From Actinomycetes bacterium (GTDB lineage: Bacteria; Actinomycetota; Aquicultoria; UBA3085; Oleimmundimicrobiaceae), in contig JAUWKI010000004.1 in NCBI GenBank assembly GCA_030614255.1, positions 4 through 64,003 on the forward strand: a stretch of DNA of 64,000 nt, in the 5' to 3' direction. The first letter of the stretch is position 1; the number at the start of each line of letters is the position of its first letter. This document shows, piece after piece, positions 40,633 to 61,852 of the stretch. The position numbers were made by a program, and so were the translations under genes. The notes under the pieces are model-generated. The model was not told the origin of the DNA. It did no database searches and was given only the letters and a program-made list of their open reading frames with translations.

Positions 40633-40720
40633 CTAGATTTTTACACCACCTAAAAGAGGATACTTTAACAAAAGATAGCATAAACAAACCAAAAATTCAT
40701 CCACCACTCAAAGCAAAAAA

Positions 40721-41926
40721 TTACTTAGGCGGCATAAAAAGGATAAATAAAATTGCCGCCGATAAAGCCATCACACCACCGTAAATGAAAGGCGCCGACG
40801 GTCCGATGTATGTCCAAAGTAAGCCCGCAATCAAGCTGGCTGCAAATGTTACCAACCCAACCGCTGTATGATAAAGACCCAGTGCAGTGCCCCTTTTTTC
40901 CGGTTGCGCCATGTCAGTTACCAGGGCCCTGCTTACACCCTCTGTAGCTGCGATATACACACCATATACGGCAAAAAGCGGCCAGATATAGCTGGACTTA
41001 GATATAAAAGCGAGGGCAAAATAAACGCCGGAAAACACCAAAAAACCGCCGACCATAAGTCTCTTTCTTCCCACTCTGTCCGAAAGCACGCCTGCTGGAG
41101 TTGAAAAAGCTGCGTAAACCACATTGTAGAGGACATAGGCCAAAACAACCAAGGTAGCCGAAAGCCCCAGATTCTTTGCTCTAAGAATCAGAAAAGCGTC
41201 GCTGGAGTTGCCGAGCCCAAAAACAACTATGATTAAAAGGAGCGTTTTAAAATTCTTGTCAAAGCCGGCCAAGCTTAAACGCGGCGCTTCTTTCGAGCCA
41301 GAAACATGCTTTTTTTTCTCTTTCACAAAGAAAAAGAGAAGAGCAACACCTAAGACAGCCGGAAAGAAAGAAAGCAAAAAAATCAATCGATATTGTTCCT
41401 TTAAGACCACCATCAAAACCAAAGCAATTAGGGGGCCAATGACCGCACCAGTTGAATCCATCGCCCTGTGAAGACCAAACGCTTTCCCCCGATTGGCGGA
41501 GTCTGTCTCATCGGCAATTAGAGCATCCCTCGCCGAGGTTCTAACCCCTTTCCCCAAACGGTCTATAAAGCGAGCCATTAAAACCGTGGGCCAGACGAAG
41601 GCCACCCCTAAAAGAAGTTTTCCTAAGGCGGAAAGAGAATACCCTCCCAATACAAATGGTTTTCTTCTCTCAAGCTTATCCGAAAGCCAGCCGGAAAAAG
41701 TTTTTAAAATGCTCGCGGTGCTCTCCGCAAAGCCTTCAATTAAGCCGACAATTGCAACTGGCGCCCCCAAAACGCTGGTCAAGAAAATAGGAACAAGAGG
41801 ATATATCATCTCGCTGCTTATATCCGTAAAGAGGCTGACTAACCCTAGAACAAAGACATTCTTTTTTATGCCGGGAATTAAAAAATCTCTTTCTTTGTTC
41901 TCCACTTCAACTCCCCAATCACGCAT
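40721..41926 (-). CDS. MFS transporter
   Basis: 12-TM pattern. GKxxDRxGRK-like loop motifs. Confidence 0.8.
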   Translation of the reverse strand: MRDWGVEVENKERDFLIPGIKKNVFVLGLVSLFTDISSEMIYPLVPIFLTSVLGAPVAIVGLIEGFAESTASILKTFSGWLSDKLERRKPFVLGGYSLSALGKLLLGVAFVWPTVLMARFIDRLGKGVRTSARDALIADETDSANRGKAFGLHRAMDSTGAVIGPLIALVLMVVLKEQYRLIFLLSFFPAVLGVALLFFFVKEKKKHVSGSKEAPRLSLAGFDKNFKTLLLIIVVFGLGNSSDAFLILRAKNLGLSATLVVLAYVLYNVVYAAFSTPAGVLSDRVGRKRLMVGGFLVFSGVYFALAFISKSSYIWPLFAVYGVYIAATEGVSRALVTDMAQPEKRGTALGLYHTAVGLVTFAASLIAGLLWTYIGPSAPFIYGGVMALSAAILFILFMPPK

Positions 41927-42241
41927 TTAAAAAATTCTGACGAAGCAGTATCGTTGAATAAAACATTGTAATCTTTTTAAAATTATGCTATTAATTTGTC
42001 TAGCTTATTATAGAGCAACCCGAAGGTTGTAGCTTTGTAAATTAGAACTTTTTCCGAAATTAGGCCACGAAGGTCTTAACCAGCTCAAAAGCTGGATGAG
42101 ATTTTTGTGGTCTTTTTTATTTGGTAACAATTATCGAAAACTGTTTTGTTTACCAAGGAGGTGAAAATCAAAAAGCTAAATTCGGACTTAAGCTTGCAAT
42201 GTTGTTAATATAAATAAAAATCTGAAAGGAGCGCAATCTAC

Positions 42242-43942
42242 GTGAAATATAAAAAAAGATTGGTAAAAATAATCGGCATTATACTTTCTGTGGCTTTCAT
42301 CATGCCCCTTCTGAGCGGCTGTTCGGAAAAGAAGGATGTCGCAAAATTAGAATCGGTTCTATTTACCAGAACGGGAGCAGTTCTTGTTTTAAGCGAAGCG
42401 CGCGATGTCTCAGAAGTTAAAGTAGCCGACAAAAAGGTTGATTTCACTCAGCCAAACACAATGACCATACTGGCCTCCTTCGAATGGGAACCAAGTAAGA
42501 AATGCGCCATCACGATAAAATCAGAGGAAGGAGTAATAAATGAGGAGACCGTGTCCCCAAAGAAACCTTCCGCCTATAAGCTTGGGGAAGCAAAACTTGG
42601 CTCCTTAGAAAAATTTCCCCAGGTAGAAAGCTGGAAAGATGTTCCTTCCGAGGAAACAATCATTTCACCGGATGGAAAATATATCGCGATGGCAAGTTTC
42701 GACGGGAAGTTCTACGTCTTCGACAACGCCGGAAAGAAGCTCTGGAACTACCAGGTTCCCGACGGAGTCGGCAAAAAGGTTGCTTTCTCTGGCAACGGCG
42801 AGATACTTCTCGCTGGCGAAGCAAGCGCCGATGGTTATCTTTATGCTTTCAACACCAAAACCGGTGAAGAGATTTGGAAATATAAAGTATCAGATGACGT
42901 GGGAACGAGCACCGACAGCTACTGGTACTACCGCCCCATGATTTATAGTCTGACCGTTTCAGGAGATACGGCTTTCGCCGCGGGACAACTGAAACAAAAA
43001 GAAAAAAAGATGGTGGAAGACAAAGAAGTAACCGTTTACAAAACCAAGTGCTTCATCTACGCGTTTGATGTGGAATCCGGCAAAACAAAGTGGCGGTTCC
43101 CAGAAGACGAACCCATGGATACAGGCGTACCGAAGGTGGTAGCCACCCCGGATGGAAACAAGGTGATGTTCGTCAATCAGAGCTGGAACTACGGCGCTGT
43201 TCAGGAAAAATATCCTGATGGCACAATCCGTCTCTTAAACGGAGAAACCGGAAAGGAAATGGCCGCCTACAAGGTCGATGCCCTGGAGCCATACTTTAAA
43301 TTCGTGGGAATTTGGGATGGTATCTGCATCTCTCCAGACGGCAATCATTTCACGGCCATGGCAGGAGATGGAAGAGGATTTCTCTTCGACTTAACTAAAG
43401 CGAAAGAGACCAGCGAGCTCAGGCTCGTGTGGATGAAGGAAATTTCCAAGATTCAGGAGGTAAGCGGGGTTCCCATTTATGCCTATGGCAACGGCACCCA
43501 TGTGGACAATGAGGGCAACGCCGTCTTTGCCACCAGCGTCACTTACTCCGCGGATAAGACAAAATGTTCCGGTACACCGCCTGCGGTTCATCCGGACGCC
43601 ACAACCATATTTGCCTATTCCAATGAAGGGAAACTTCAGTGGAAATGGAAAGCCGAGGGGAAAATCGGTTGTCCGCTATTCTCTCAAGATAATCGATACA
43701 TGGTGGTTGGAGTGGCTCATGACTGGGTAAGTCAAAACAAAGACATGGCCGGCGTGCAGTGCTTCGACCTAACAAAAGAAGGCAACGCTAGCGACAAATT
43801 GTGCTGGTTCTATCCCGTGGAGGGCATCTGCGCCATTGCCACAATTTCAAACAACGGAGAGAGCATCGCCGCAATTGAAGCGCCAATTCAAATGGAAGAT
43901 AAGAGTATAAGTGGAAATCACAAAATCCATTTCGTTAGGTAG
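42242..43942 (+). CDS. PQQ-like beta-propeller repeat lipoprotein
   Basis: Lipobox LLSGC after signal peptide. Repeated G..Y.FD...G..LW motifs typical of PQQ/BamB-like propellers. GTG start with AAAGGAG RBS. Confidence 0.6.
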   Translation: MKYKKRLVKIIGIILSVAFIMPLLSGCSEKKDVAKLESVLFTRTGAVLVLSEARDVSEVKVADKKVDFTQPNTMTILASFEWEPSKKCAITIKSEEGVINEETVSPKKPSAYKLGEAKLGSLEKFPQVESWKDVPSEETIISPDGKYIAMASFDGKFYVFDNAGKKLWNYQVPDGVGKKVAFSGNGEILLAGEASADGYLYAFNTKTGEEIWKYKVSDDVGTSTDSYWYYRPMIYSLTVSGDTAFAAGQLKQKEKKMVEDKEVTVYKTKCFIYAFDVESGKTKWRFPEDEPMDTGVPKVVATPDGNKVMFVNQSWNYGAVQEKYPDGTIRLLNGETGKEMAAYKVDALEPYFKFVGIWDGICISPDGNHFTAMAGDGRGFLFDLTKAKETSELRLVWMKEISKIQEVSGVPIYAYGNGTHVDNEGNAVFATSVTYSADKTKCSGTPPAVHPDATTIFAYSNEGKLQWKWKAEGKIGCPLFSQDNRYMVVGVAHDWVSQNKDMAGVQCFDLTKEGNASDKLCWFYPVEGICAIATISNNGESIAAIEAPIQMEDKSISGNHKIHFVR

Positions 43943-43954
43943 TGCGACCCATTT

Positions 43955-44005
43955 TGAGAGAAGAGGAACCATCATATCCATTTCCTCTTCTCTCGATTTC
44001 TTTTA
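43955..44005 (+). terminator. Rho-independent terminator after the propeller lipoprotein gene
   Basis: 13-bp perfect stem GAGAGAAGAGGAA/TTCCTCTTCTCTC followed by a T-rich tract. Confidence 0.6.
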
Positions 44006-44026
44006 ATGTGAAAAGGTTGGAGGCTT

Positions 44027-45943
44027 GTGAGAAAACTCAAAATAATTCTCATTTTAGTTCTGGTTGTCTTTTTATTTTCGGGTTGCCAGGGTAAAGGGGA
44101 GAAAGATTTAAAAATAAAAACTGTTGAGTTTGGACACCATAGGGCCGTAATTGAGCTTTCAAGAGAAACCCCAATATCCTCGGTGAGCGTTTTTGACCAG
44201 GATGGATCGCTCATAACCACAGTCACCATTGGTTCAGAAGTTTCAAAACAAGCCATCCTCTTTTTTGATTGGGAGGAGGCTCGGCCTTACTTATTCCAAA
44301 TCAATCTCAAGAACGGAAATATGATAGAAAAAGAGGTAAAATCTCCGGCCAAGCCGACCTCCGTTGCTAAATTCTGTATTCAGGCCCCCTACGGAATGAG
44401 AGAAAGCGACGAGAGGAGCCTTGTTGCCAAAGGAAGCAAAGTCACGGCCACCGTTTTTTTAGAAAGTTACTCCGGCAATCCTCTGCAAGCAAGCGTAAAA
44501 CTGACTTTGCCAAAAGAGTTCAAGCTGGTTCGAACACCTTCAATTTTTAAGGCAAAAGAGACGAGAGAAGGTCACATCCTTACGGCCGAATGCAAACTGG
44601 TAACAGAATTTGACAATTTCAACGAATTGCTGGAATTTGAGGTGCTGTCCACTCTCGCCGAAGACATCTACAAAATCGAGGGAGAAGCCACCGTTGAAGA
44701 AATAATAAACGGCGAGCGCAAGGTCACGCAGTTCCAAAAAGAAAAAGAACTGCGCGTAATCTCTTTAAAAGAGGCGAAGAACCTGGCTCATATAGCTGGA
44801 ATCAAAGTACCCACCAATGACGAGGGAGATTTTGATTCTCGTAAGAAAGAAAATACCCTGGCCCTAAGCGTAGATGGTAACAATTTCTTAAAAAGAATCC
44901 TTGGAACCGGCAACAAAGAGATTGATTACCTCGAGCACCCCCTTGCCTTTGCCACCACCACGGTCAGGAATGAAAATCAAGATAACGTGGTCTTTCTTGT
45001 AACATCCAAAGTGCTGGACCCCAAGACAAAAAAGATAGCCCAGGCCTTTCGGGTTCCTCCCAACAAAAGCGGTGGCACAGGAGTGAGTTACGCCGTAGTT
45101 TCGGTGCCCGGGAAATCGGAAGCAAAAGCAACCCTTCCTATTTATGTCAATGAAGCTGAGGTCTTGGGGGGTAAATATATTTTGGAGAGCGAAATTAAAA
45201 TATTCGGGACAGACAAAGCCATCTCTAAAAAACAAAAAGAGATCGATGTCATCACCAGAAACCCAGTCCCCGGGCTCATCACCCTCGCCGCTTTTTTAAT
45301 CACGGTGATAGGGCTTGGATATCTTGCAATTTGTCAAAAGGCATTTTTTAAAGGATTTAAGACCAAATGGCTGGTAATAATAGCTCTTTTTGGCACGGCC
45401 ACTTTCATTACGGTCAATGTGCCCGGCACCCTCCTTTGGGACTTCCTCCATGTCATCCTGGGCCCCTTTAGCTTCTTAATCACGGGAATCTTTTATGAAA
45501 TTATTCTTTACGCTCTCATCATGTCTCTTGTGGTCCTCATTCCCAGGCCGGGAGTGGTGACCCTCGCTTTGGGTGTAAGTTTTCTTTTAGGAGGAGTGGT
45601 GCTCGGCAATTTTAGCCCCGTCACCCTCATGTGGAAAGCATCTCTGATTTTTTTGCTCGAGACCACCCTATATCTCTTTGGCGTGACCAGGAAAAACGGC
45701 ATTCTGACGGATATCGGCGCGGAAAAGAGATGGCGCGTTCTCGCCACGGCGGGAATTGCCTGCGCGTTGGCTGATACCCTTTCCGTTTACATAAATTTCG
45801 GCACCACGATATTTTTATACAGACTTTACTACGCGACCTGGTACATTCATACTTATGCGGTAATCGATGGCTTCTTATACACCCTGGTGGGCGCCTTGGT
45901 GGGAACAAGATTAGGATTCAGTTTAAGAAAAATTATAGAATAG
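44027..45943 (+). CDS. Lipoprotein with ~400-aa extracytoplasmic domain fused to a C-terminal ~6-TM domain (candidate substrate-capture S-component of the downstream ECF transporter)
   Basis: Lipobox FSGC. C-terminal ~230 aa strongly hydrophobic with about 6 helices. Immediately upstream of the EcfA/EcfT genes. Confidence 0.45.
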   Translation: MRKLKIILILVLVVFLFSGCQGKGEKDLKIKTVEFGHHRAVIELSRETPISSVSVFDQDGSLITTVTIGSEVSKQAILFFDWEEARPYLFQINLKNGNMIEKEVKSPAKPTSVAKFCIQAPYGMRESDERSLVAKGSKVTATVFLESYSGNPLQASVKLTLPKEFKLVRTPSIFKAKETREGHILTAECKLVTEFDNFNELLEFEVLSTLAEDIYKIEGEATVEEIINGERKVTQFQKEKELRVISLKEAKNLAHIAGIKVPTNDEGDFDSRKKENTLALSVDGNNFLKRILGTGNKEIDYLEHPLAFATTTVRNENQDNVVFLVTSKVLDPKTKKIAQAFRVPPNKSGGTGVSYAVVSVPGKSEAKATLPIYVNEAEVLGGKYILESEIKIFGTDKAISKKQKEIDVITRNPVPGLITLAAFLITVIGLGYLAICQKAFFKGFKTKWLVIIALFGTATFITVNVPGTLLWDFLHVILGPFSFLITGIFYEIILYALIMSLVVLIPRPGVVTLALGVSFLLGGVVLGNFSPVTLMWKASLIFLLETTLYLFGVTRKNGILTDIGAEKRWRVLATAGIACALADTLSVYINFGTTIFLYRLYYATWYIHTYAVIDGFLYTLVGALVGTRLGFSLRKIIE

Positions 45944-45952
45944 GTGTTTTAA

Positions 45953-47647
45953 ATGAGAGGTTCTTTATCCATTGACAATTTAAAATTCACATACACAGGC
46001 AGAGAAAAACCGACCATCAAAGGAATTAACTTGAGCGTTCAGCCAGGGGAGTTCGTGCTGCTTACAGGCCCCACAGGTTGTGGCAAGAGTACTTTGCTTA
46101 AAACCTTAAACGGCATCATCCCTCATCAATCAGGAGGGAAGATGGAGGGAACCGTTAAAGTAAACGGCTTGGATACCAATACCGCCGAGATGCAAGACAT
46201 TTGTAAACAAGTGGGCATGGTCTTCCAAAGCCCGGACGACCAGCTCTTTTCAACCGTCATCGAGGACGAAGTGGCCTTCGGCCTGGAAAATCTGTGCCTT
46301 GGTAAAAACGAAATAGATAGAGGCATCGACTTGGCTCTTCGGAAAGTGGGTATGAAAAACCTGCGTCAAGCTCAGATAGGCACTCTTTCGGGAGGACAAA
46401 AGCAAAGGGTGGCCATAGCATCGGTTCTGGCCATGGAGCCCCGCATCCTCGCTTTAGATGAACCCCTAAGCCAATTGGACCCCGTGGGAGCCAAAGAAGT
46501 TTTAGATGTCATAAAGCGGCTCAATGTAGAGCAAAACATCACGGTGATTTTAGTCGAGCACAGGATTCACGAGATAGCGCATATGGCCTCTCGCATCCTC
46601 GTGATGGATGAAGGGAAATTGGTTCTCGATAAGCCCACAGGAAAAGCCTTTGCCAAGCTCGAGATATTCGAAAAACTGGGCCTGAGGGTCCCTGAGCCCA
46701 TTAAACTCTTCTGCGCTCTCGGTTTCTCGGAAAGACCGTTGACAAACAAGCAAGCGATAGAGACGGTGCAAGATAGGATTGAAAACGGCTTCCTCAAAAA
46801 AATAACGAGCGTTAACCGCGATAGACTTCCCCGGAGGCTGGGAAATGAGGTCGTCTCAGCAAAAGATGTTTCTTTCTCTTATTCGAAGAAGGGAGAGTGT
46901 GTTCTTAAAAATATCGACCTAAGCATCAGGGAAGGTGAAGTAGTGGCCCTCATGGGAAGCAACGGCTCCGGCAAAACCACCCTTCTTCTTCACTTGGCGG
47001 CCATACTTAAACCGTCTTCGGGAAGGATTGAGGTATTTAACGCGGATACTTGCAAAATTAGCCCCTACTCTTTAGCAAGCCAAGTAGGGGTGGTATTCCA
47101 AAATCCGGACCTTATGCTTCTTTCTGATACCGTTTGGGGTGAAGCGATGTTTGGTCCCCAGAATCTCCACCTGGAAAAGGCGGATGAGCTAGCCAGGCAA
47201 TCTTTGGAGGCAATGTCCATCGGGAAGTTAATGACCGACTCCCCCCTTGCTTTAAGCCGGGGCCAAAGGCTTCGGACTGCCGTGGCCTCCATCATTTCGA
47301 TGCAACCGAAGTTAATTCTCTTAGACGAACCCACCACAGGACAAGACAGGATCCACATTGAAGAGATGATGGCCTACTTGATCCCAAAGGACGGGGGAAA
47401 GACCGTCGTCTTTTGCACCCACGATGTCCAAACGGCGATACGATACGCCGATACCATCTTGGTTATGGATAAGGGAGTTATAGCTCAGGGTTCGCCGGAA
47501 AGTGTCTTTGAACAGGAAGACATCTTACGCCGAGCAAACTTAAGCGCCCCCGACTCTTACCACATCGCCAAAAAACTGGGCCTTGAGTCAATCTTTATGG
47601 TAGAAGAACTGGAGGATACGCTCAAATGTTTAATACTGCCTCACTGA
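45953..47647 (+). CDS. ECF-type (CbiO-like) transporter ATPase, duplicated A1-A2 fusion
   Basis: Two Walker A motifs (GPTGCGKST, GSNGSGKTT) and two ABC signatures (LSGGQKQR, LSRGQRLR). Confidence 0.85.
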   Translation: MRGSLSIDNLKFTYTGREKPTIKGINLSVQPGEFVLLTGPTGCGKSTLLKTLNGIIPHQSGGKMEGTVKVNGLDTNTAEMQDICKQVGMVFQSPDDQLFSTVIEDEVAFGLENLCLGKNEIDRGIDLALRKVGMKNLRQAQIGTLSGGQKQRVAIASVLAMEPRILALDEPLSQLDPVGAKEVLDVIKRLNVEQNITVILVEHRIHEIAHMASRILVMDEGKLVLDKPTGKAFAKLEIFEKLGLRVPEPIKLFCALGFSERPLTNKQAIETVQDRIENGFLKKITSVNRDRLPRRLGNEVVSAKDVSFSYSKKGECVLKNIDLSIREGEVVALMGSNGSGKTTLLLHLAAILKPSSGRIEVFNADTCKISPYSLASQVGVVFQNPDLMLLSDTVWGEAMFGPQNLHLEKADELARQSLEAMSIGKLMTDSPLALSRGQRLRTAVASIISMQPKLILLDEPTTGQDRIHIEEMMAYLIPKDGGKTVVFCTHDVQTAIRYADTILVMDKGVIAQGSPESVFEQEDILRRANLSAPDSYHIAKKLGLESIFMVEELEDTLKCLILPH

Positions 47648-48519
47648 TCCAACCATCCATAAAAAAAACGTTCATCCATCGAATCGACCCCCGGGCAAAG
47701 ATAACTTTCTTGCTCTGCGCGTCGATTCTTGCGGTTAGTCTCGACAAACCGAAATCGCTCTTTATCCTATTTATGGTCGCCATTTCATCTTGCATATTCG
47801 CCAAACTGCCTTGGGACAAGGTAGGGTTGCTGGCTATCTTCGTGATTTTGGGAATGTGGGGGACGATGTTCAGTCAAGCCCTGTTCTACGCGGGACACCC
47901 CCGAACAATAATTTTCGTCCTCATCTCCTCAAAGACACCTATTTTGGGAGCCATAACCGATGGACTTTACGTCTACCGGGAGGGCTTCATCCACGGCGCC
48001 GTTCAAGCGCTGCGTTTCTCTTCGATGATTTGCCTGGGATTGCTCACATGCTGGACCACCGAGCCCCGTGATTTGCTTACAGGGTTGGTGAAGTTAAAAA
48101 TCCCTTACAATTTCGCTTTCATGACGATAACCGCTTTAAGGTTCATACCTACGGTGCTTACCGAGACCAAGACGGTGATTGCTGTGGAAAGACTGAAAGG
48201 TTTTAAACCCACCAAGGTGGGAATATTCTCTTCGCTTAAAACGGCGGTCTCCACCTTGCGCCCCATCTTGGCAAACTCCGTCCGCCGGGCAAGCACCCTG
48301 GCACTATCCATAGAGAGTAGAGCGTTTAACCCAACGGCTCCCCGAAGCCACTTGAGAGACCTCCGATATAAATTCAGCGATTTTCTAATTACGGGAGGGG
48401 CAATCTCGGGAAGTTTGGCGGTAGCCACGATTAAAATAATGTATTTGCTTTATATAAACGAGATATTTTATTCATCTTCTTTAAGACATATATATCAGTT
48501 GGCGGGAAAGGTCCTGTAA
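47626..48519 (+). CDS. ECF transporter transmembrane T component (EcfT/CbiQ family)
   Basis: Multi-TM protein overlapping the ATPase stop. CbiQ-like length and topology. Confidence 0.7.
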   Translation: MFNTASLIQPSIKKTFIHRIDPRAKITFLLCASILAVSLDKPKSLFILFMVAISSCIFAKLPWDKVGLLAIFVILGMWGTMFSQALFYAGHPRTIIFVLISSKTPILGAITDGLYVYREGFIHGAVQALRFSSMICLGLLTCWTTEPRDLLTGLVKLKIPYNFAFMTITALRFIPTVLTETKTVIAVERLKGFKPTKVGIFSSLKTAVSTLRPILANSVRRASTLALSIESRAFNPTAPRSHLRDLRYKFSDFLITGGAISGSLAVATIKIMYLLYINEIFYSSSLRHIYQLAGKVL

Positions 48520-48546
48520 AAAATAATTTGAAAGGAGAATGAGAAA

Positions 48547-52458: not shown

Positions 52459-52464
52459 GCTCAA

Positions 52465-53463
52465 TTGGATAAAATAATTGAAGCAAGAGAACTAACAAAA
52501 TACTATGATGGCAATCTGGCGGTAGATGATATCAACCTCGAAATCCCAAGAGGTGAAGCTTTTGGTTTACTCGGGCCCAACGGCGCGGGAAAGACCACCA
52601 CGGTGCTCATGCTCACCACCCTGCTCAAACAAAGCGGGGGGAAAGCATCAGTCTGTGGATTCGATATAGCAAAAGAGGCTCGCGGAGTAAGAAAACATAT
52701 AAGTTACGTGCCTCAAGGATTGGCCGTAGATGATGCTCTCACGGCGCGGGAAAGCCTGGAGCTCTTCGGCTCCCTTTACGGCATACCCCCCGCCAAACGA
52801 AAACAAAGGATGGATTACTTCCTCGAGTTCTTCGAACTTTCCATGGTTGCAGATAATCCCGCTGCCACTTACTCTGGCGGAATGAAGAGGAAGCTGGAGT
52901 TAGCTCAAGCCCTCATCCATCAACCGGAAGTCGTCTTCCTGGACGAGCCCACCATCGGTCTAGACGTCACCGCCCGCCATAAGATATGGGAATTCATCCT
53001 CAGACTAAAAGAAGAAAAGAAGGTTACCTTCTTTATCACCACCCATTACATGGACGAAGCGGCGGTGCTTTGCGACAGGGTGGCCATAATCACCAAGGGA
53101 AAAATCGTTTGCTCGGGCTCCCCAAGCACGTTATCCAGTCAAATTGGAGGAGATGTAATTAGAATACGTATAGAGAAAGAGGACGTGGAGAAAGCTTCTG
53201 AAGCGCTGGAAGGAATGGAGAAAATTAAAAGTAAAAAATGCATTAAAACGGAATTGGAACTAATAGTGGAAGAGGGCGACAAGTTCTTGCCTGAGGTCAT
53301 GCAAGTTTTAACTTCAAAGGAAATCACCATCAACTCGGTTTTGATGAAGCAAGCCGGCTTGGACGAGGTGTTCATTAAATACACGGATGATACCGAAGAG
53401 AGCCCAAGCCCCAAAGAGGCCAGAAAACACAAAAAAATTATAAGAAAGCTAATGAGAGGGTGA
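52465..53463 (+). CDS. ABC transporter ATP-binding protein (ABC-2/DrrA-like)
   Basis: GPNGAGKTT, YSGGMKRKL, Walker B VVFLDEPT. Confidence 0.85.
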   Translation: MDKIIEARELTKYYDGNLAVDDINLEIPRGEAFGLLGPNGAGKTTTVLMLTTLLKQSGGKASVCGFDIAKEARGVRKHISYVPQGLAVDDALTARESLELFGSLYGIPPAKRKQRMDYFLEFFELSMVADNPAATYSGGMKRKLELAQALIHQPEVVFLDEPTIGLDVTARHKIWEFILRLKEEKKVTFFITTHYMDEAAVLCDRVAIITKGKIVCSGSPSTLSSQIGGDVIRIRIEKEDVEKASEALEGMEKIKSKKCIKTELELIVEEGDKFLPEVMQVLTSKEITINSVLMKQAGLDEVFIKYTDDTEESPSPKEARKHKKIIRKLMRG

Positions 53464-54209
53464 TGTTGTTGTTTAATGCCTTCATAAAAATCTGTAAACG
53501 CGATATCAAGATATTATTTAGACTCAAAATAAACTTAATTGCCTCAATAGTCGGCCCCGTCGCCTGGTTGGCGGTGCTCGGCTCTTTGCCCATGTCAACA
53601 AATTCAGGAAGGTATTTGGATTATGTAACTCCCGGCATAATGGTGATGTCCGTCATGATGCCCTCACTTCAAAGCGGCTTGCTCACCTCGGCCGACAAAA
53701 TCTATGGTTATTTAAAGAAGATATTCGCAACCCCCACTCCGCGGCCGGTGATAGTCATGGGCAAAATTACGGCGGCCATGAGCAAGGGAATGATTCATCT
53801 CTCGGCCGTCCTTGCCACCGCGTGGATTCTCGGCGCGAGAATGGAAGGTGGTCTTGCTGGTCTTCTACTGGTATTTGGATGCGCCCTCTTCTTTGCCATG
53901 GGCCTCTCGGCCCTTTCAATATTTATCGCCTTCAAGGTGGCCGATTTGCACGGTTTCGGTGCAATTATAAGCTTAGTTAGCTTGCCGCTTTTCTTGGCCA
54001 GTTCGGCCCTGATGCCTTTGGACAAGATGCCGGCATGGTTGCGATGTGTGGCATCAATAAATCCGGTCACTTACATCATCGACATCTCAAGAAAAATAAT
54101 GCTCACCGGGAACATATCGGGCTGCGGTTTGATCTTATTGATTCTGATATCATTGGCCTTGAGTATGATAATCTTATGTATGCGCACCTTTGAAAAAGGT
54201 TTTGAGTAA
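53460..54209 (+). CDS. ABC-2 family transporter permease
   Basis: Six-TM hydrophobic protein overlapping the ATPase stop. Confidence 0.7.
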   Translation: MMLLFNAFIKICKRDIKILFRLKINLIASIVGPVAWLAVLGSLPMSTNSGRYLDYVTPGIMVMSVMMPSLQSGLLTSADKIYGYLKKIFATPTPRPVIVMGKITAAMSKGMIHLSAVLATAWILGARMEGGLAGLLLVFGCALFFAMGLSALSIFIAFKVADLHGFGAIISLVSLPLFLASSALMPLDKMPAWLRCVASINPVTYIIDISRKIMLTGNISGCGLILLILISLALSMIILCMRTFEKGFE

Positions 54210-54229
54210 ATAAACGAGGAGGACAATAA

Positions 54230-56245
54230 ATGAGTTGTTTAGCTGGTAAAGTATATTCCTTCACCGCAATTGTGGGACAGGACAAGATGAAAAAGGCCCT
54301 GATTTTAAATGTCATCAACCCCAAGCTCGGCGGGGTACTCATCAAGGGCCAAAAAGGAACTGCCAAATCAACCGCCGTTCGCGCTCTTGCCGACCTTTTG
54401 CCCGAAATAGAAGTGGTCGAGGGCTGCCCCTTTGGCTGTAATCCTCACACTGAAGCAGAAATGTGTCCCCACTGTCTTGAAAAAAAGCTAATTGAAGACA
54501 AACTGCCCCTCTCCCACCGGAAAATGAAGGTGGTTACCCTCCCCATCAATGCCACGGAGGATAGAGTAGTAGGAACGTTGGACATAGAGCGCGCGATAAA
54601 ACATGGCGAAAAACGTTTTGAGCCGGGGATTCTGGCGGATTCCCACCGCGGCTTCCTTTATGTTGACGAGGTGAACTTGCTCGATGACCACATAGTTGAC
54701 ATTCTGCTGGACTCCGCCGCGATGGGAGTCAACACCGTCGAGAGAGAGGGGATCTCCTTCTCACACCCCGCCCACTTTATACTGGTGGGAACGATGAACC
54801 CCGAAGAAGGAGATTTAAGGCCACAACTTTTGGACAGGTTCGCACTCTGTGTCGAAGTCGAGGGCATAAGCGATACAAAAGAAAGGGTGGAGATAATTAA
54901 GAGGCGAATGAGCTATGAAAACGACCCTCATTCCTTCGGCCATCGCTGGGAAGACACTCAAGAAAATTTGCGCCGTCAAGTCCTGGCCGCCGAAGCACTC
55001 CTGCCTAAGACAGAGATATCCGACGATATGCTGCACTTAATAGCCGAAATCTGCGTGGGGATGGACGTGCACGGACACAGAGCCGACATCGTGATGATGA
55101 AGACGGCTAAAACTATCGCCGCCTTTCATCAAAGAAGGGAAGTAACCGAGAAAGATGTGAAAGAAGCTGCTGAGCTCGCCCTGCCTCACAGGATGAAGAG
55201 AAAGCCGTTCGAGGAGCAAAAACTGGACCAAGAAAAGTTGGAGCAAACCATCGAAAAACATAAGAAAAATCGGAGCGAACCCGAGCAAGCCGAGCAAGAA
55301 CAGAAAGAACCTCAAGAATCATCACACCGTGCCTACCGACAGGCAGGAAATCAGGATGACCAAAAGGAGGCTCCGGATAATTCGTCTTCAAAAACCTTTG
55401 ATGTCGGAACCCCCTTTAAAACAAGGGATATCAAGATGCCAAAAGACAAGCTTCCTCGCACGGGTGGCGGAAGGAGGGCAAAGAGCGTTACGGGCTCGAA
55501 GTCCGGCAAATATGTTCGGAGCACCATCCCCAAAGACAAGACAACGGACATCGCCCTCGACGCAACCATAAGAGCCGCCGCCATCAGACCGTGCCTACCG
55601 GCAGGCAGGAACGGAAAAAATGAGACCGGAAAGACTGGTTTAAAAATTGAAAAACCCGATTTACGCCAGAAGGTAAGAGAAAAGAAGGTCGGCGCATCCA
55701 TCCTCTTTGTGGTCGACGCCAGCGGCTCCATGGGCGCGAAAGAGAGGATGGTGGTGGCCAAAGGAGCTGTGCTTTCGCTCCTAATCGACGCCTATCAAAG
55801 ACGGGATAAGGTCGGGCTCATAGCTTTCAGGAGAAAGAGCGCGGAGCTCTTGCTTCCATTAACAGACAGCGCTGAAACCGCCCAAAGTTATCTCAGAGAG
55901 CTTCCAACGGGAGGAAAAACCCCTTTGTCCCATGGGCTAACCCTCACGCTTGAGACATTCAATAAAGAAAGGGCCAAAAACAAAAAGGTCCTTCCTCTTA
56001 TGGTTTTAATAACCGACGGGAAAGCCAACGTTTCTTTGAGCGAGAAAAATGCAGTTGAAGAAGCCGGGGAAATCGCGGAAAAATTTGCCGAAGCAAAAAT
56101 AAAAAGCTTGATTATCGACACAGAAAACGACTTCTTGAACCTGGGGCTCGCCAAAGAAATAGCGAACGCCTGTGATGGCGAATATATAAAGCTGGAGGAG
56201 CTTGAAGCGGAGAAATTGGCTCATATGGTTAAGGAAATAAACTAG
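54230..56245 (+). CDS. ChlI/ChlD-like chelatase subunit (AAA+ ATPase fused to vWA/MIDAS domain)
   Basis: N-terminal AAA+ (GQKGTAKST). Acidic/Pro-rich linker. C-terminal vWA with DASGSM MIDAS. Confidence 0.8.
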
Positions 56246-56273
56246 CTAAAAATCAACGAGTGGGCAATGGGGG

Positions 56274-57143
56274 TCAGGTCTTGTTTTTTGACATTTCTTC
56301 TTCTTTTGTGATTCTGCTTATCGTCGAATAGTGCATCTTGAGATGATTGGCAATTTCTTTCTGGCTGTAGCCATATTGCTCTGTTGCCTCCACTATCTTC
56401 TTATTTCTCATCTGTTTATTCTCCAATATTCTTTTCTTAAACAAACTTTCAAGACTTGGTCTGCCAACATATCTTTGGTGCTTAGGAATATCCTTTATTT
56501 TTTCCTGTCCTTTTAAATAACTTTTAAATTCCTCAACAAAATCATTATCGCCAAGCAGGATTTGTCCTTTTGCCTTTATCCAAATTGATTCTTCTTCTAT
56601 TCCTGCCTTAACAAACTCTCTGTATCTTTTCCTTGCCGGTTTTATCTTTGGGCCAAATTGAGCTAAAACCCAGTTTGTTGTGAGGCAGGGATGAGGTTTT
56701 TCCAAGCCGGCAGTAGCACGATAACTGCCATATCTCCATTCTTCGGGGTCTTTAACCAGCTTTGCTCTTATGGGGTTTAAGACCACGTATCTGCAGACCT
56801 CAAGAAGATGGCTTTCTTTCTGGATGAGTATGGCTTTGTATCTTCCTTGAAAGATGTGACCCACCCTGTGATGCTTTTTATTGAAGGTCTGTGTGTATAC
56901 CCCGTTTAGTTGTCTCATGCCCTTGGAGAGATTTCCATCGGGAGTTTCGATAATTAGATGGTAGTGGTTATTCATCAGACAATAAGCGTGGCAGATAAAA
57001 TTGTATTTCTTGTTTACACTTTTGAGAACGTTTAGAAAGATTTCTTGGTCTTTTTCATCATAAAATATGGGCTTCTTTTCATTGCCTCTTGATGTTATGT
57101 GATATATAGCTCCGCTGTATTCTATCCTTAAAGGTCTTGCCAT
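56274..57143 (-). mobile_element. RAYT/IS200-like Y1 transposase (HuH) with C-terminal HTH domain, flanked by imperfect inverted repeats
   Basis: NHYHLII HuH motif and RYVVLNP Tyr region. Inverted repeats GGGGTCAGGTCTT...GACAT at 56270-56294 and 57173-57197. Confidence 0.7.
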
Positions 57144-57228
57144 GAAATACTTGTAACATATCTAATGATTTAATGTCAAGATTAAAGACCTGACCCCTTT
57201 TGCTTTTGTGCTTTTGCAAACTCTGATA

Positions 57229-58434
57229 TTACTCATACCTTAAGGCTTCAATCGGGTCTAGCTTTGAGGCCTTAAAGGCAGGATAGACTCCAAAAAATAT
57301 GCCAACGGCAAATGAAAAAAAGAAAGCCAGAACGATAGACCAGAAAGTGATGCTGCTTGGCAAGAACTGCCCAAGCACCACTGAGCCGACGGCCCCGAAA
57401 ATGATTCCGAGCGCGCCACCCACAACACTTAATGTTATGGCCTCAATAACAAATTGAGACAGGATATCAAACGTCCTGGCACCAACGGCCTTACGAATGC
57501 CAATCTCCCTTGTCCGCTCCGTCACCGAAACAAGCATTATGTTCATAATCCCTATGCCGCCAACGAGAAGAGAAATGCCCGCGATACCTCCCAACATCAG
57601 AGTGAGCGTTCCCATCATCGACTGAAAAGTTGCCAAAAGCTCATCTTGCGCAAGAATAGTAAAGTCGTTCTCCTCAAGCTTTTTTAATAGCACCCGTTCT
57701 GTCTCTTTTACGGCCAAATCCATATCTTCTTGTCTCTCAGCTTGAACCAAAATTAAACTAACGTTTTTCGTACCTAAAATCCTTTGGGCAACGGTTACGG
57801 GAATAAAAACTTGATTATCCATGTCTATTCCCATGCCTCCCGCACCTTTTTTGCTCATGACTCCGATTACAGTAAACTTCTGCCCGCTGATGGTAATCTT
57901 CTCCCCAATGGGATCACGAAAGCCAAAGAAGTCTTCCGCAACAGTTTGACCTATCGTGCAGACCCTCTTTAAACCTTCGACATCGGTTTCGGCAAAAAAT
58001 CTTCCCTTTTCCACAGGAGAGTTTCTTGCAATAGGATATTCTGGCGTCGTGCCCATCAAATCGGCCGTCCTCGAAAGGTTACCGAATTTAACGGAGACCA
58101 CCCCACTTATAGTCGGAAGCACATCTTTAACGTGTTGAGCCCCGTTTTTAATATCTTCAACATGCTCAAGCTCAAGTTTGTTGGTCGTCCCCATTGGACC
58201 GCCCGAGTGCCCACTACCGGGCTCCATTTCAATTTTTCCCGGCATGACCATAGCTATATTTGAACCAAGCCCCATAATTTGGCTGGAGATATCCGCCTGA
58301 ACACCGCTTCCAATTGAAACTAAAAGTATGACAGCCGAGACACCTATAATCATACCCAACATTGTTAACGCTGAGCGCATCTTGTTGGCCAATAAGCTAT
58401 TTATTGCGACTCTAAAACTCTCAAGAATGTTCAT
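57229..58434 (-). CDS. MacB/FtsX-family ABC transporter permease
   Basis: MacB periplasmic core plus FtsX C-terminal TMs. The ORF track extends to 58509 but overlaps the ATPase gene by 89 nt; internal Met (MNILESF) is the likelier start. Confidence 0.75.
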
Positions 58435-59167
58435 TATTCTCTTCCTTCTCGGCAATTTCAGCCAGAATCTCTTTGGCTTTTTTTCTGTTGGAAACCGCTC
58501 TATCGGCAACTATCTTTCCGTCCAAAATCTGAATGATTCTTTGAGCATGTTCAGCAACATAGAGCTCGTGAGTAACCAAAATTACCGTTCTTCCTTCGTC
58601 ATGTAATTTTTGCAAAATCGCCATTACCTCAGCTCCAGATTTTGAATCGAGGTTCCCTGTGGGCTCATCAGCTAAAATGATTGAGGGATCATTTACCAAC
58701 GCGCGAGCAATTGCAACCCTCTGTTGTTGCCCGCCGGAAAGCTGCGTTGGTCTATGGTAAAGCCGATCACCGAGCCCAACCGCCTCCAATACCTCTTTGG
58801 CTTTCTTTGTGCGCTCCTTCAAACCGATGCCCGCATATACCATAGGAAGCTCAACGTTGGCAATCGCTGTAGCCCTGGGAAGTAAGTTGAAAAACTGAAA
58901 CACGAAGCCAATCTTTTTGTTTCTAAGCACAGCAAGCTCATTTTCGCTTAAATCAATCGTATCCTGACCTTCAATTTTAACGTCACCGGTGGTAGGTTTG
59001 TCGAGACAACCAATTAAATGCATGAGCGTGGACTTTCCCGAACCCGACGGGCCCATTATAGACACAGATTCCCCTGCTTTTATAGAGAATGAAATTCCCC
59101 TAAGCGCAGGAACTTCCACATCCTCAATTTTGTAGATTTTTTTCAAATCTTTAGTTTCTATCAACAT
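58421..59167 (-). CDS. ABC transporter ATP-binding protein (MacB/LolD type)
   Basis: [35 protein letters not shown]. Confidence 0.85.
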
Positions 59168-59212
59168 CTTGGGCCACTACCTTTACCTACAAAATCTTAC
59201 AAATGGTCCGCA

Positions 59213-60292
59213 TCAGTTCGTATCTTTATCCGTCTTTACCTTGTCACCATCTTTTAATTTTTCGGTTCCCGAGATGATAACCTCATCACCGATTTTTATA
59301 TCTCTTCTTATCTCAACATGCGTATCGTCGGAAAGACCCACTTCAACTTCCCGCTCCTCGACAACGTTATCCTTTAAAACAAAAACTACATCTTTCCCGT
59401 CTCTTTCCAACACCGCCTCTATCGGCACCGTGACAACATTATCTTTTGTGGTCTCTATAACATCTGCACTACCATTCATGCCAATTTTTAAATCGAGAGG
59501 CGTCGATTCAAGCTCAATCTCAACGGGGAAAACTGTAGCACCCGTGGCCGTAACTGAGGATATGGAGCCAATCTTAACTACCTTCCCTCCAACAAGTTCG
59601 TTTGGATACGCGTCTATTACAACCTCGGCCTCTTGCCCCATTTCTATCCTTCCGACATCGGTTTCATCCACATTTGCAACAAAATTCATCTTGCTTAAAT
59701 CAGCTACGGTAAAAAGGACTTGCCCTTGTTGGACAGCACTTCCAATAATCAATTCGCCACCCTGTCCCATCGTTCCCGAAGTCGATGTCGAGTAGATAAG
59801 AATTCCATCTATTGGAGCTGTTATTTTTACATTCGCAAGGTTCTTTTTGGCAATCTCATAAGCCATCTCGGCTTGCTCAACCTGAGCTTCGGCCGCATCT
59901 AACTCCTCGTCAGAGGTTCGTGGAATCGAATCCAGTTTTTCCAAATTTGCCTTGGCGGAAAGATGCGCTGCATATGCCTGCTTCTCCGCAAAATTTAATT
60001 GCTCCTCATCTAATTCGAGAATCATATCATCCTTTTTTACTTTGGAGCCATCCTTGGCAAGAAGTGCTTTAATTGTGCCACTTACATTCGCCGTCACTTC
60101 TTCTTGATTTCTCGCTTCGAGTTCCCCTGATGCGGAAACAACAATAGAGATGGTGCCCTTCGTTGCTTTTGCCACCTCTACCTCAGTCACACCATTTCTA
60201 AGGAAGAAAAATCCAACCAGTCCAATTAAAATTAAAGCAATCAAAACAGAAATAATCACCCAAGTCTTTTTCTTCATATTAATCCTCCCCAT
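59213..60292 (-). CDS. Efflux periplasmic adaptor protein (HlyD/MacA family)
   Basis: N-terminal TM anchor, coiled-coil and beta-barrel/lipoyl-like segments. Overlaps the marR stop. Confidence 0.8.
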   Translation of the reverse strand: MGRINMKKKTWVIISVLIALILIGLVGFFFLRNGVTEVEVAKATKGTISIVVSASGELEARNQEEVTANVSGTIKALLAKDGSKVKKDDMILELDEEQLNFAEKQAYAAHLSAKANLEKLDSIPRTSDEELDAAEAQVEQAEMAYEIAKKNLANVKITAPIDGILIYSTSTSGTMGQGGELIIGSAVQQGQVLFTVADLSKMNFVANVDETDVGRIEMGQEAEVVIDAYPNELVGGKVVKIGSISSVTATGATVFPVEIELESTPLDLKIGMNGSADVIETTKDNVVTVPIEAVLERDGKDVVFVLKDNVVEEREVEVGLSDDTHVEIRRDIKIGDEVIISGTEKLKDGDKVKTDKDTN

Positions 60293-60743
60293 GATTTCTT
60301 AAACCGGCTACAATAGCAGGCGATATCCTCTGACAAATTGCAAATAAATCCTCAAAATCTTCATCATTAATTTTTTCAAGCAAAGACACAAGTCTTTCTC
60401 GCCGCTTCTCCTGCACCTTTACAATGACACTCTTCCCTTTGTCGGTTAGATAAACGCGGACAACTCTTCTGTCTTTTTCATCCCGCTGGCGTTTAAGATA
60501 GCCGTCGCGAACGAGTCGGTCGACTATGCCCGTTGCCGTTCCAAAGTTTAAAGAGAGCAGCTCCGCAAGCTCGCTCATCTTACGGCTACCTTTTGCATCA
60601 ATCATCATCATGACAAAAAACTGAGGCATGGTTAGCCCCACCTCAGTAGCCAAGATTTTTTCTTTTCCCCTAAAATCGTGAAAGAAATTCGTTAAAAAAG
60701 TGTCTAGTTTTTCTGCATAAATTTCAGCTCTTTTTCTATCCAT
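60279..60743 (-). CDS. MarR-family transcriptional regulator
   Basis: 154-aa winged-helix MarR pattern. First gene of the efflux operon. Confidence 0.85.
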   Translation of the reverse strand: MDRKRAEIYAEKLDTFLTNFFHDFRGKEKILATEVGLTMPQFFVMMMIDAKGSRKMSELAELLSLNFGTATGIVDRLVRDGYLKRQRDEKDRRVVRVYLTDKGKSVIVKVQEKRRERLVSLLEKINDEDFEDLFAICQRISPAIVAGLRNHGED

Positions 60744-60875
60744 TTTCCCTCATTTATTTGAATTGCAAATATTTTGTATTCCAAAGTATATCTCTTCGAA
60801 GAGGTAGCGTCAAGGGGAAGTGTCCAGCCTCCAGAGAACCAGTTGAAGTAAAGTTTTAATAGAAGATTGCTTGTG

Positions 60876-61153
60876 CCTGCCCGCCTCTGGCGGGGCTGAT
60901 AGCGTATGGCAGATAGCAGATGGTGAATGGAATACAGAGTATAGAATGTGGAATATAGTAAAATCAGTAATTTGGCCGGCAAACTACCGACTTCCCACTA
61001 AGAGACTACCGACTGATTGGTAATGGGTATAGTTAAATGAAAAATGGAGAATGAAAAAATAAAAATGTCTTTAAGGATTTTTGTAAGACCAGCAATCTAG
61101 AAAACTTTTTCATTTTTCTATGTAGTTCTACCTGCCCACTGATAGGCACGGTG
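60876..61153. repeat. Composite repeat element B-A-D in inverted orientation, plus module C (inverted) at 61131-61153
   Basis: Reverse complement of 60974-61018 is CCAATCAGTCGGTAGTCTCTTAGTGGGAAGTCGGTAGTTTGCCGGCC, matching 38291-38336. Confidence 0.7.
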
Positions 61154-61205
61154 TTTTTAGTTTTTATTTTATGCCGGCAACTGGAAGCTGGTGGCTGAGA
61201 GATAG

Positions 61206-61475
61206 ATGACCGTGCACCCGCCTTCGACATTAAACTACAAGCGAAATCCCGACAGTTAACTCCAGTCAGGTGAACCTGCGGCACCCGGTAGTTCTTGCTT
61301 ACCGCTGCTTCCTTCCGGACCTGACGGGGTTCACAAGCTGCCGTCGCACAGGACCCAACCTTCAATGCCACTTATCAAAATTCCGTTCTCATAGCCAATG
61401 CCTCCGGAGGGAATTCAGTCCCGCTATAGCGGATTGCGGGTACAGGGCACCGCTAACTCCCCACTTAGCACGGTC
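61206..61475 (-). ncRNA. ffs: Signal recognition particle RNA, long (Bacillus/archaeal type with Alu domain)
   Basis: Minus-strand sequence contains CAGGTCCGGAAGGAAGCAGC (domain IV). The 5' region GGTGCCCTGTACCCGCAATCCGC aligns with the B. subtilis scRNA Alu domain. Ends GACCGTGC/GCACGGTC pair. Confidence 0.75.
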
Positions 61476-61508: not shown

Positions 61509-61602
<94 letters not shown>

Positions 61603-61758
61603 CGACCCCTCCCAAAAACAGCTAATAGTTTATAGTTTCCAGTCATAAATTTCGAGTATCCACAGGATTAGAAGTGAATGGTAAAAACTGCTTTTATTTC
61701 TTGCTTTTCACTCTTTGCTCTCATCTACCGACTGTCGACTCCTCACTACCAACTAAAT

Positions 61759-61852
61759 TGGCGGAGAGGGAGGGATTCGAACCCTCGTCCCGCCGTAAGG
61801 CAGGAAACGGTTTTCGAGACCGCCGCACTCGGCCAGACTATGCGACCTCTCC
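61759..61852 (-). tRNA. tRNA-Ser (anticodon CGA), CCA encoded, long variable arm
   Basis: 94 nt. Acceptor GGAGAGG/CCTCTCC. Anticodon loop CTCGAAA. T-loop GGTTCGAATCC. Confidence 0.85.

Follow-up and report, generated by a model that had tools for sequence, protein, structure and literature searches.

The genomic islands that come closest to the locus described here are of two kinds. In replacement-type flexible genomic islands the same slot between conserved genes holds unrelated cargo in each lineage, its edges are sharp, the cargo may lack a mobility gene and the surrounding core genes are recombination mosaics. Integrase islands at tRNA, tmRNA and ffs genes are foreign in composition and variable in content among relatives, abut the RNA gene on its 3' side and come with an integrase and att-like duplications. 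The stretch of DNA analyzed here, a 64-kb window of a metagenomic contig from an uncultured actinobacterium (all coordinates are positions in this window, and relatives are labelled L001 to L104), carries a nine-gene operon on the plus strand (42242-56245) that encodes two lipoproteins, an energy-coupling factor (ECF) transporter, a split CobN-type chelatase with its ChlI/ChlD motor and an ABC-2 pump. The operon occupies a slot between macB and a major facilitator superfamily (MFS) transporter gene, within the tadA-ffs-dnaX-ybaB-recR neighborhood. We put at about 0.8 the probability that this operon was acquired horizontally and is young, that ffs and dnaX were ancestrally apart, that the slot is variable and that marR-macAB and the MFS gene are old residents on either side of it. 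We class the finding among the flexible genomic islands that sit in variable slots; its architecture is ordinary, even textbook, and its cargo rare.

The island extends from 41927 to about 56263 (~14.3 kb, or 15.3 kb if the adjoining transposase unit is counted), and its genes differ from those of the rest of the window in several respects. The GC content at third codon positions (GC3) is 0.50-0.61 in the operon (mean 0.559 +/- 0.030, n = 9) versus 0.38-0.51 (mean 0.427 +/- 0.030) in the 41 other open reading frames (ORFs; Mann-Whitney p = 3.8e-6), and overall GC is 0.47-0.51 versus 0.42-0.46. All 41 ORFs of at least 100 amino acids (aa) outside the operon (window 1-64000) lie on the minus strand, the G-rich and presumably leading strand, so that within the 64 kb only the operon is on the plus strand and head-on. 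The window has a GC skew of -0.1 to -0.28 throughout, which flips in the operon. The locus was recovered from seven other lineages (L013/14, L012, L101, which represents the L001 lineage, L010, L015, L016 and L104), and the operon is present in the window and in L010, a metagenome-assembled genome (MAG) of Candidatus Oleimmundimicrobium sp. that is here the sister species, and absent from L012, L013/14 and L101. A genome-collection scan with DnaX gave L001 as its one close relative, on a contig that stops 5 kb upstream of dnaX, and a metagenome scan with MacB, dominated by generic ABC-permease motifs, yielded homologues of 38-49% identity and no member of the clade. The L010 copy is also compositionally distinct, with GC3 of 0.51-0.59 versus 0.33-0.42 in its flanks (own GC3 of L010, 0.36).

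Comparison with L010 dates the operon relative to its surroundings. Nucleotide identity is 74-83% over 12 kb of core flanks and 84.7% in the MFS gene, and it rises to 97.1% in the MFS-operon spacer (41927-42241) and to 89-96% in the operon; the step at about 41900 is sharp, the MFS gene holding its 84.7% to within about 100 nt of the edge. Synonymous divergence (dS) follows the same pattern, at 1.10-1.58 for porB, porA, porG, recR, ybaB and dnaX (recR 1.32, with 80% nucleotide identity, ybaB 1.58 and dnaX 1.18) and 0.66 for the MFS gene, whereas the four leading genes of the operon have 0.135-0.22 and the cobN N-part gene, as far as it is readable, has 0.45. Because of its GC3, its head-on orientation, its patchy presence and its low dS relative to the flanks, we regard the operon as foreign and young. 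By dS, its two copies share an ancestor some 3-10 times more recent than that of the host genomes, and the operon has therefore either moved between the lineages or been acquired by both from a common source. The spacer upstream, which is part of the imported block, presumably carries the operon promoter; in the operon leader, searches for a riboswitch or other RNA returned chance-level matches only, and promoter and terminator scans at both edges found no more sites than in shuffled sequence. No megablast match to 41927-57228 was found in PLSDB that would have indicated a plasmid origin.

The same data bear on the idea that the genus inherited the CobN/ECF operon from its ancestor, that the operon has been lost and replaced in L012, L013/14 and L101, and that it owes its similarity in the two remaining lineages to strong constraint. 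Its shared position in two lineages and its nine intact genes are what one would expect of such an ancestral operon. Constraint does not readily account, however, for a dS of 0.14-0.22 next to flanks at 1.1-1.6, for a non-coding MFS-operon spacer that is 97% identical, or for a GC3 that stays close to 0.55 in both hosts although these stand at 0.43 and 0.36 themselves; the operon is, moreover, the only head-on block in the window, and three independent losses with replacement would be required. We consider this explanation very improbable. Scarcely any probability attaches to an assembly artefact in which a chimeric metagenomic contig was joined at repeats. The window does come from a metagenome contig, ENA ERZ4220937 NODE_81, and it does contain assembly-breaking repeats (38.1-38.5 kb), but the MFS-operon junction is reproduced in two other sequencing runs, being seen in contigs of at least two separate runs, and recurs in a different species, in a MAG from NCBI, and no dispersed repeat lies in the junction region between macB, the transposase gene and the last operon gene.

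The interval between macB and the MFS gene holds four different cargos over five related lineages, the window included, and nucleotide homology with the relatives ends exactly at the macB stop (57229) and at the MFS start (41905). In L013/14 the cargo is a pair of ArsP genes, and in L012 a MatE gene and an ArsP pair. L101 has a tyrosine recombinase gene, several unknown genes, two flavin mononucleotide (FMN) reductase genes and a relic of a REP-associated tyrosine transposase (RAYT; REP, repetitive extragenic palindromic sequence). The window and L010 have the nine-gene operon, and an intact RAYT gene flanked by REP-like arms is read in the window. No remnants of ArsP, MatE or other slot cargo were found in the window. 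The interval is accordingly a replacement hotspot with lineage-specific cargo. The recombinase of L101 (4155-4973 of that contig, 272 aa, Phage_integrase) abuts the macB stop, and the slot of this lineage continues with unknown genes of low GC3 (0.31-0.34) and then with the FMN reductase genes, of high GC3 (0.58-0.60); it holds at least two foreign layers.

In all of this the locus resembles the replacement-type flexible genomic islands, including the lack of a mobility gene in the window copy and the mosaicism of the surrounding core genes. It is unlike them in that L101 has a tyrosine recombinase in the slot, and in that the young tract stops short of the MFS flank, contrary to simple flank-homology exchange. 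The foreign composition, the proximity of tRNA-Ser genes and ffs and the variable content among relatives are also features of integrase islands at RNA genes, but the slot edge at the macB stop is about 4 kb from ffs and not at the 3' end of an RNA gene, and the window has neither an integrase nor an att-like duplication. Among the core genes, the window's porA and porB (34389-37362) are closest to those of L012 (91-92%) and the L010 copies to those of L013 (94-96%), while in dnaX the closest pairs are the window and L010, and L012 and L013. Judged from the sequences, this mosaicism implies that homologous recombination among these lineages may be frequent.

In Bacillus, ffs, the gene for the signal recognition particle (SRP) RNA, lies directly upstream of dnaX. 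The linkage of dnaX, ybaB and recR is documented (PMC9610160, PMC2720974). The initial annotation of the window had read the whole block of about 20 kb between ffs and dnaX, from the MFS gene to marR, as one accessory island created by an insertion or rearrangement that broke an intact ffs-dnaX junction. The gene orders of the relatives do not agree with such a break. In L013/L014 (DnaX 66% identical to that of the window) the order is tadA, a gene for a 23S rRNA intervening sequence protein, tRNA-Ser(CGA), tRNA-Ser(GGA), ffs, marR, the genes for a membrane fusion protein (MFP) and an ATP-binding cassette (ABC) ATPase, macB, ArsP, ArsP, MFS, dnaX, ybaB, recR and por. L012 (68%) has marR to macB, MatE, two ArsP genes, MFS, two reversed genes and dnaX; upstream of its dnaX, other genes fill more than 10 kb, and its ffs is beyond the readable range. 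L101 (68%) has ffs, marR to macB, the tyrosine recombinase gene in reverse, four small unknown genes, the two FMN reductase genes, the RAYT relic, MFS and dnaX. In L010 (79%) the operon of the window stands divergent from MFS-dnaX. The more distant L015, L016 and L104 (53%, 51% and 47%) keep the order tadA, tRNA-Ser, ffs, dnaX, but a gap of 2.8-3.4 kb with unrelated genes separates ffs from dnaX, and additional insertions lie among the tRNA genes. Over the five clade lineages in which both genes are visible (L013/14, L101, L015, L016 and L104; ffs is not visible in L010 or L012), ffs adjoins dnaX in none; intervals of 2.8-9.7 kb that hold other genes separate the two. The interval from tadA to dnaX is hence a long-standing variable region with fixed anchors. 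The relatives already had ffs and dnaX apart, with different genes between them, which is the outcome that the initial annotation had itself named as a refutation of the broken junction.

The anchors themselves are found in canonical order and orientation, as that annotation had noted, and show no rearrangement. All lie on the minus strand, with recR (37503-38099, Pfam RecR domains), ybaB (38479-38787) and dnaX (38842-40632, both by Pfam) on one side, and the gene for a large SRP RNA (ffs, 61210-61473, 201.7 bits), tRNA-Ser(GGA) (61519-61612), tRNA-Ser(CGA) (61759-61852) and tadA (61863-62309) on the other; they lie outside the island. Between them, also on the minus strand, the MFS gene (40721-41926, with a likely true start at 41905 that gives 394 aa) forms the dnaX-side edge of the slot, and the gene for the MacB permease (57229-58509, or to about 58434 in the operon listing) provides, with its stop codon, the ffs-side edge. 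The genes for the MacB ATPase (58421-59167), the MFP (59213-60292) and MarR (60279-60743), all recognized by Pfam, follow. The marR-MFP-ABC-macB set has the same order and position in L012, L013/14 and L101, with protein identities of 78-96%, and the MFS gene has the same position in L001/L101, L010, L012 and L013/14 (88-90% protein identity). GC3 is host-like in both (0.41-0.48 in marR-macAB and 0.468 in MFS). Because of this host-like composition and of the same positions in relatives that lack the operon, marR-macAB and the MFS gene are old, vertically inherited residents of the genus-level clade, and not parts of an island as first proposed. What stands of the accessory island is a foreign operon of ~14.3 kb in the macB-MFS slot, and not the whole 20 kb. 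The proposed check on GC and codon usage divides the block in the same way, with the nine operon genes deviating (GC3 0.559 versus 0.427) and the MFS, RAYT and marR-macAB genes host-like.

The argument for a single 20-kb event had also drawn on a composite repeat on the ffs side of the block and its inverted twin between ybaB and recR. Both are real and lie where they had been placed. The pair 38277-38353 and 60956-61032 is 77 nt long and 86% complementary, with a core of 36 nt for which 0.00 occurrences are expected by chance, and two further modules follow in the same order, giving a composite of three modules and ~170 nt. In the ybaB-recR spacer (38100-38478) the modules are A (38277-38353), B (38368-38397) and C (38403-38448); in the ffs-marR spacer (60744-61209) a comparison of repeats places the composite at about 60870-61160, and its modules are partly orthologous to those that L013/14 have in this spacer. 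Single modules are also present at five further window spacers (1-130, 2700-2763, 30015-30110, 32659-32750 and 61020-61091) and in spacers of L010, L012 and L013/14, their own ybaB-recR and ffs-marR spacers included. The composite pair is not an insertion scar, because it brackets ybaB and dnaX as well and because the anchors are not inverted; it does not mark the island ends and belongs to a genus-wide family of mosaic repeats that is separate from the RAYT arms. For the single event, one can cite the canonical tadA-ffs-dnaX-ybaB-recR order kept around the block and a significant inverted repeat near both of its ends. Against it stand marR-macAB and MFS, which have host-like GC3 and occupy the same positions in the operon-free L012, L013/14 and L101, the spacing of ffs and dnaX in every sampled lineage of the clade in which both are visible, and a repeat twin that lies beyond ybaB and dnaX and whose modules are dispersed in the window and in relatives. 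One insertion or rearrangement of the whole MFS-marR block, splitting an adjacent ffs-dnaX pair and marked by the inverted composites, is thus hardly credible.

The mosaic repeats are reminiscent of the bacterial interspersed mosaic elements (BIMEs) of E. coli in that separate modular repeats fill several intergenic spacers, and unlike the BIME/REP systems in that the dispersed modules are a sequence family other than the RAYT arms. In the ybaB-recR spacer the window agrees with L010 (12153-12627) at 96.8%, with ybaB and recR alongside at about 80%, and two independent assemblies break in this spacer (38.1-38.5 kb). The mosaic repeats may have spread recently or evolved in concert, or the spacer may contain a non-coding element under constraint. 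The 88-nt spacer between MFS and dnaX (40633-40720) was likewise observed to be about 96% identical to that of L010.

At the other end of the operon, the call of a RAYT-type transposase was upheld. The RAYT unit (56264-57203, minus strand) lies 18 nt from the stop of the last operon gene and is bounded by REP-like arms (56264-56295 and 57172-57203) of 32 nt that are inverted, 81% complementary and palindrome-bearing; the gene itself (56274-57143, minus strand) encodes 289 aa, passes the curated NCBIfam model REP_Tyr_transpos (NF047646, 99.8 bits versus a cutoff of 80) and Pfam Y1_Tnp (53.7 versus 23), and shows the HUH (HYH) and Tyr-NP (RYVVLNP) motifs directly in its sequence. Passing a RAYT model and being flanked by inverted, palindrome-bearing arms are properties that it shares with described REP/RAYT systems, from which it departs in that the 64 kb hold no scattered copies of the arm motif and in that the protein has a C-terminal extension of ~150 aa. 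L001/L101 carries, upstream of MFS and without the operon, a truncated RAYT relic of ~31 codons with the same GGGGTCAGGTCTT arm. This arm occurs within the 64 kb only at the RAYT gene and once in L001. Because the RAYT GC3 is host-like (0.403) and because a decayed homologue with the same arm lies in the operon-free slot of L101, the RAYT probably occupied the slot earlier than the operon did.

The presence of an intact RAYT and its inverted REP-like arms 18 nt from the chlID stop, together with the known targeting of REPs by insertion sequences (IS elements), might suggest that the RAYT itself, by transposition, mobilized the block, or else that an inversion took place between the mosaic repeats at 38.3 and 61.0 kb. 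Both readings are, in our judgment, very improbable. The L101 relic has the same arm in a slot without the operon, the RAYT has a host-like GC3, and the arm motif is confined to the RAYT within the 64 kb, with none at the far end of the operon; nor is any RAYT known to move cargo. As to an inversion, dnaX and ybaB lie between the large inverted repeats and keep their canonical orientation, so that none is visible.

A horizontally acquired operon in a variable slot can be fitted to the following sequence of events. In this genus-level clade of the Candidatus Oleimmundimicrobiaceae the ancestral order is likely to be tadA, tRNA-Ser, tRNA-Ser, ffs, marR-MFP-macAB, the slot, MFS, dnaX, ybaB, recR and por. 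The operon would then have been inserted between the RAYT and MFS, whereas the L101 cargo, brought by a recombinase, would have entered on the other side of the RAYT, next to macB. It is known that REPs tend to attract insertions, IS elements among them; the operon was probably inserted next to the REP/RAYT hairpins, or captured by a recombinase like that of L101, and then spread between lineages. A stronger form of this proposal makes the macB-MFS junction by the REP/RAYT a dedicated capture site, at which REP hairpins or an L101-like recombinase would time and again take up entire foreign operons without att scars. Together with the reading of the cargo as an undescribed uptake machine, set out below, we hold this stronger form to be unlikely, and offer the two jointly as a speculation.

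Several observations weigh against a young, horizontally acquired operon or against details of its entry. No integrase (Phage_integrase or recombinase domain) was found in the ORFs of 40.7-60.7 kb, there is no att or target-site duplication at the operon ends, and no direct repeat of the 3' ends of ffs or tRNA-Ser occurs within 36-64 kb. The higher divergence of the cobN N-part gene (dS 0.45) means that the operon is itself mosaic. Simple transfer by flank homology should have carried some flank along, and the sharp edge at the MFS start therefore argues against such an exchange on that side. The macB-side end of the young tract is placed only by GC3 and the L101 relic, since the right-hand end in L010 is not readable, and the same two lines bear on whether the RAYT travelled with the operon. 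Finally, the putative S component described below comes from a four-sequence model and a Foldseek E of 6e-3, and neither further cob genes nor a cobalamin riboswitch, of which the operon has none, point to the substrate of the chelatase or to the direction in which it works.

All nine operon genes are intact. The first (42242-43942, plus strand, as are the other eight) encodes a 566-aa beta-propeller lipoprotein (Pfam PQQ_2, PQQ_2-like; lipobox LSGC) with a GC3 of 0.533 and a dS of 0.15 relative to L010. The second (44027-45943) encodes a 638-aa lipoprotein (lipobox FSGC) that has no Pfam or NCBIfam match and falls among only four clusters in 5.8 billion proteins, the three others being 37-42% identical to it. 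The two lipoproteins share an N-terminal domain of ~110 aa. In the 638-aa protein a beta-sandwich ectodomain of ~400 aa is followed by a C-terminal membrane domain of about six helices, and a structural model of the latter (residues 405-638, pLDDT 74.8) has as its top Protein Data Bank match 5edl, an ECF S component (Foldseek E 6e-3, TM 0.50/0.57), and compares with TmRibU at TM 0.42/0.55. On this model, the C-terminal domain resembles an ECF S component and may be considered a putative one. The next two genes supply the remainder of an ECF transporter, namely a fused A1-A2 ATPase (45953-47647; TIGR04520, 452 bits versus a cutoff of 315) and a CbiQ T component (47626-48519; Pfam CbiQ, 94 bits versus 25), which scores below the cutoff of the equivalog TIGR02454 (60 versus 111.8).

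The large chelatase subunit is encoded in two parts, a 786-aa N-part (48547-50907, covering positions 1-657 of the 1090 of Pfam CobN-Mg_chel) and a 516-aa C-part (50908-52458, positions 661-1089 of 1090), which score 970 and 860 bits in NF004646 at positions 2-774 and 781-1276, for a whole-protein cutoff of 1468. The junction between them reads GAGGAGGTAAATTAAGTG (window 50890-50925); in its GAGGAGGTAAAT-TAA-GTG arrangement a Shine-Dalgarno sequence (GGAGG, then N6) precedes the stop TAA and the start GTG. Many anaerobic bacteria and archaea have CobN C-halves of ~490-525 aa, and L017 and L018 have split pairs. A nonsense mutation, with a pseudogene as its result, was rejected on account of the Shine-Dalgarno sequence and GTG at the stop and of the wide distribution of split homologues; the split is a true two-gene arrangement. 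Downstream lie a DrrAB-like ABC-2 ATPase gene (52465-53463; TIGR01188, 332.5 bits versus a cutoff of 312) and its permease gene (53460-54209; Pfam ABC2_membrane), a pair that also accompanies CobN in L017, L018 and L019, and, last in the operon, the gene for a ChlI/ChlD AAA+/VWA fusion (54230-56245; TIGR02442, 843 bits versus a cutoff of 779; Pfam AAA_lid_2, VWA_2 and Mg_chelatase). The linker of the latter contains two 30-nt repeats (55320-55349 and 55582-55611), 93% alike and 262 nt apart, that are read in different frames (SHRAYRQAG versus IRPCLPAGR), as expected of a repeat at the DNA and not the protein level, and that weakly resemble (67-79%) the host intergenic hairpin modules at 30080-30109 and 61131-61154.

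Relatives of the cargo are scattered. The core of split CobN, ABC-2 pair and ChlI/D recurs beside importers of the FecCD/Peripla_BP_2 type in L017 and L018, of which one is an Actinomycetota MAG and the other a bacterium with TonB. In L019 the order is propeller, 638-aa homologue, CbiQ, fused ATPase, unsplit CobN, ChlD and ChlI, and this cassette adjoins a second CobN cassette and a CbiZ gene. L019 supplies one of the three other clusters of the 638-aa protein, and Methanosarcinales MAGs supply two; the nearest relatives come from these MAGs and from a contig with an SLH-domain gene. In L020, the Methanosarcinales contig that was examined, a propeller gene stands next to the homologue. No other cob or cbi biosynthesis gene is present in the operon or its flanks, nor a cobalamin riboswitch, and the cob-gene context of a cobaltochelatase of the aerobic cobalamin pathway, whose substrate is hydrogenobyrinic acid a,c-diamide, is not found here. 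Most members of the CobN superfamily from anaerobes and archaea are not reliably annotatable (PMC12583661).

Among characterized systems, the cargo recalls first the hmu heme-uptake operon of the Bacteroidota, with its dechelatase HmuS (PMC12583661), since in both a CobN-superfamily subunit stands beside uptake parts and surface lipoproteins, with no other cobalamin-biosynthesis genes in the operon. The likeness has its limits, in that the large subunit of the window matches CobN models and not an HmuS of tested activity and is split in two, that a ChlI/D AAA+ motor accompanies it while HmuS is reported to work without ATP (PMC12583661), and that uptake would proceed by an ECF transporter instead of TonB and HmuR. 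With the Group I ECF transporters (CbiMNQO/NikMNQO) the operon shares a T component of the CbiQ family, ATPases and a putative S component encoded together, beside metal-cofactor genes, but the window has no CbiM or CbiN, its two ATPases are fused, and its putative S component, which has no family match, is joined to a lipoprotein ectodomain of ~400 aa. The division of labor that fits best is that the ECF transporter, through an S component fused to a surface lipoprotein ectodomain, would import a metal or a metallo-tetrapyrrole or corrinoid, with the beta-propeller lipoprotein aiding substrate capture or import. The split CobN-type class I chelatase, driven by the ChlI/D AAA+ motor, would then insert or remove the metal at the expense of ATP, and the DrrAB-like ABC-2 pump would export the product or excess substrate. 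Jointly with the capture site, and at the same low odds, it may be that the cargo is an undescribed uptake-and-(de)chelation machine, made up of an ECF transporter with a lipoprotein-fused S component, a propeller lipoprotein, split CobN with ChlI/D and an ABC-2 exporter, which is exchanged between anaerobic Actinomycetota and Methanosarcinales and salvages corrinoid or metalloporphyrin.

The remaining features of the window concern its host and its margins. The host lineage is a member of the Actinomycetota, class Candidatus Aquicultoria, related at the genus level to Candidatus Oleimmundimicrobium, with whose MAG (L010) its DnaX shares the 79% identity given above; remoter DnaX matches are named Subteraquimicrobiales, Hakubella and Aquicultor, and on these names and on taxonomy a Bacillus-like Firmicute host was rejected. 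Large SRP RNA genes of the Bacillus type, with Alu domain, were detected in the window, L013, L015, L016, L101 and L104 (172-217 bits, RF01854); typical Actinobacteria have a small SRP RNA of the 4.5S type. The genes, RNAs and repeats of the initial annotation were all found where it had located them. The co-orientation of genes with the presumed leading strand is extreme across the 64 kb. A gene for a toxin of the MazF/PemK type (63213-63536) lies just past tadA, which in the window is 10 nt from tRNA-Ser(CGA); between the same two genes L013 (2411-2770) and L014 (756-1115) carry the gene for the 23S rRNA intervening sequence protein, of 119 aa and of a four-helix-bundle family. In L015 a pyruvate:ferredoxin oxidoreductase beta subunit (15078-16979, TPP_enzyme_C) is 633 aa long, for orthologues of 306 aa elsewhere, and carries an intein with an Intein_splicing match and a faint LAGLIDADG match.

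Taken as it stands, the locus offers a clean, dated case of operon-scale transfer in a little-studied, uncultured and deep-branching actinobacterial class, and shows that this class does not follow the rule that places ffs immediately upstream of dnaX. The cargo is the more useful lead, because it ties a hard-to-annotate protein of the CobN superfamily to a complete and unusual ECF importer and to two surface lipoproteins, and these lipoproteins, together with the transporter, are concrete handles for finding the substrate of a CobN-type chelatase.

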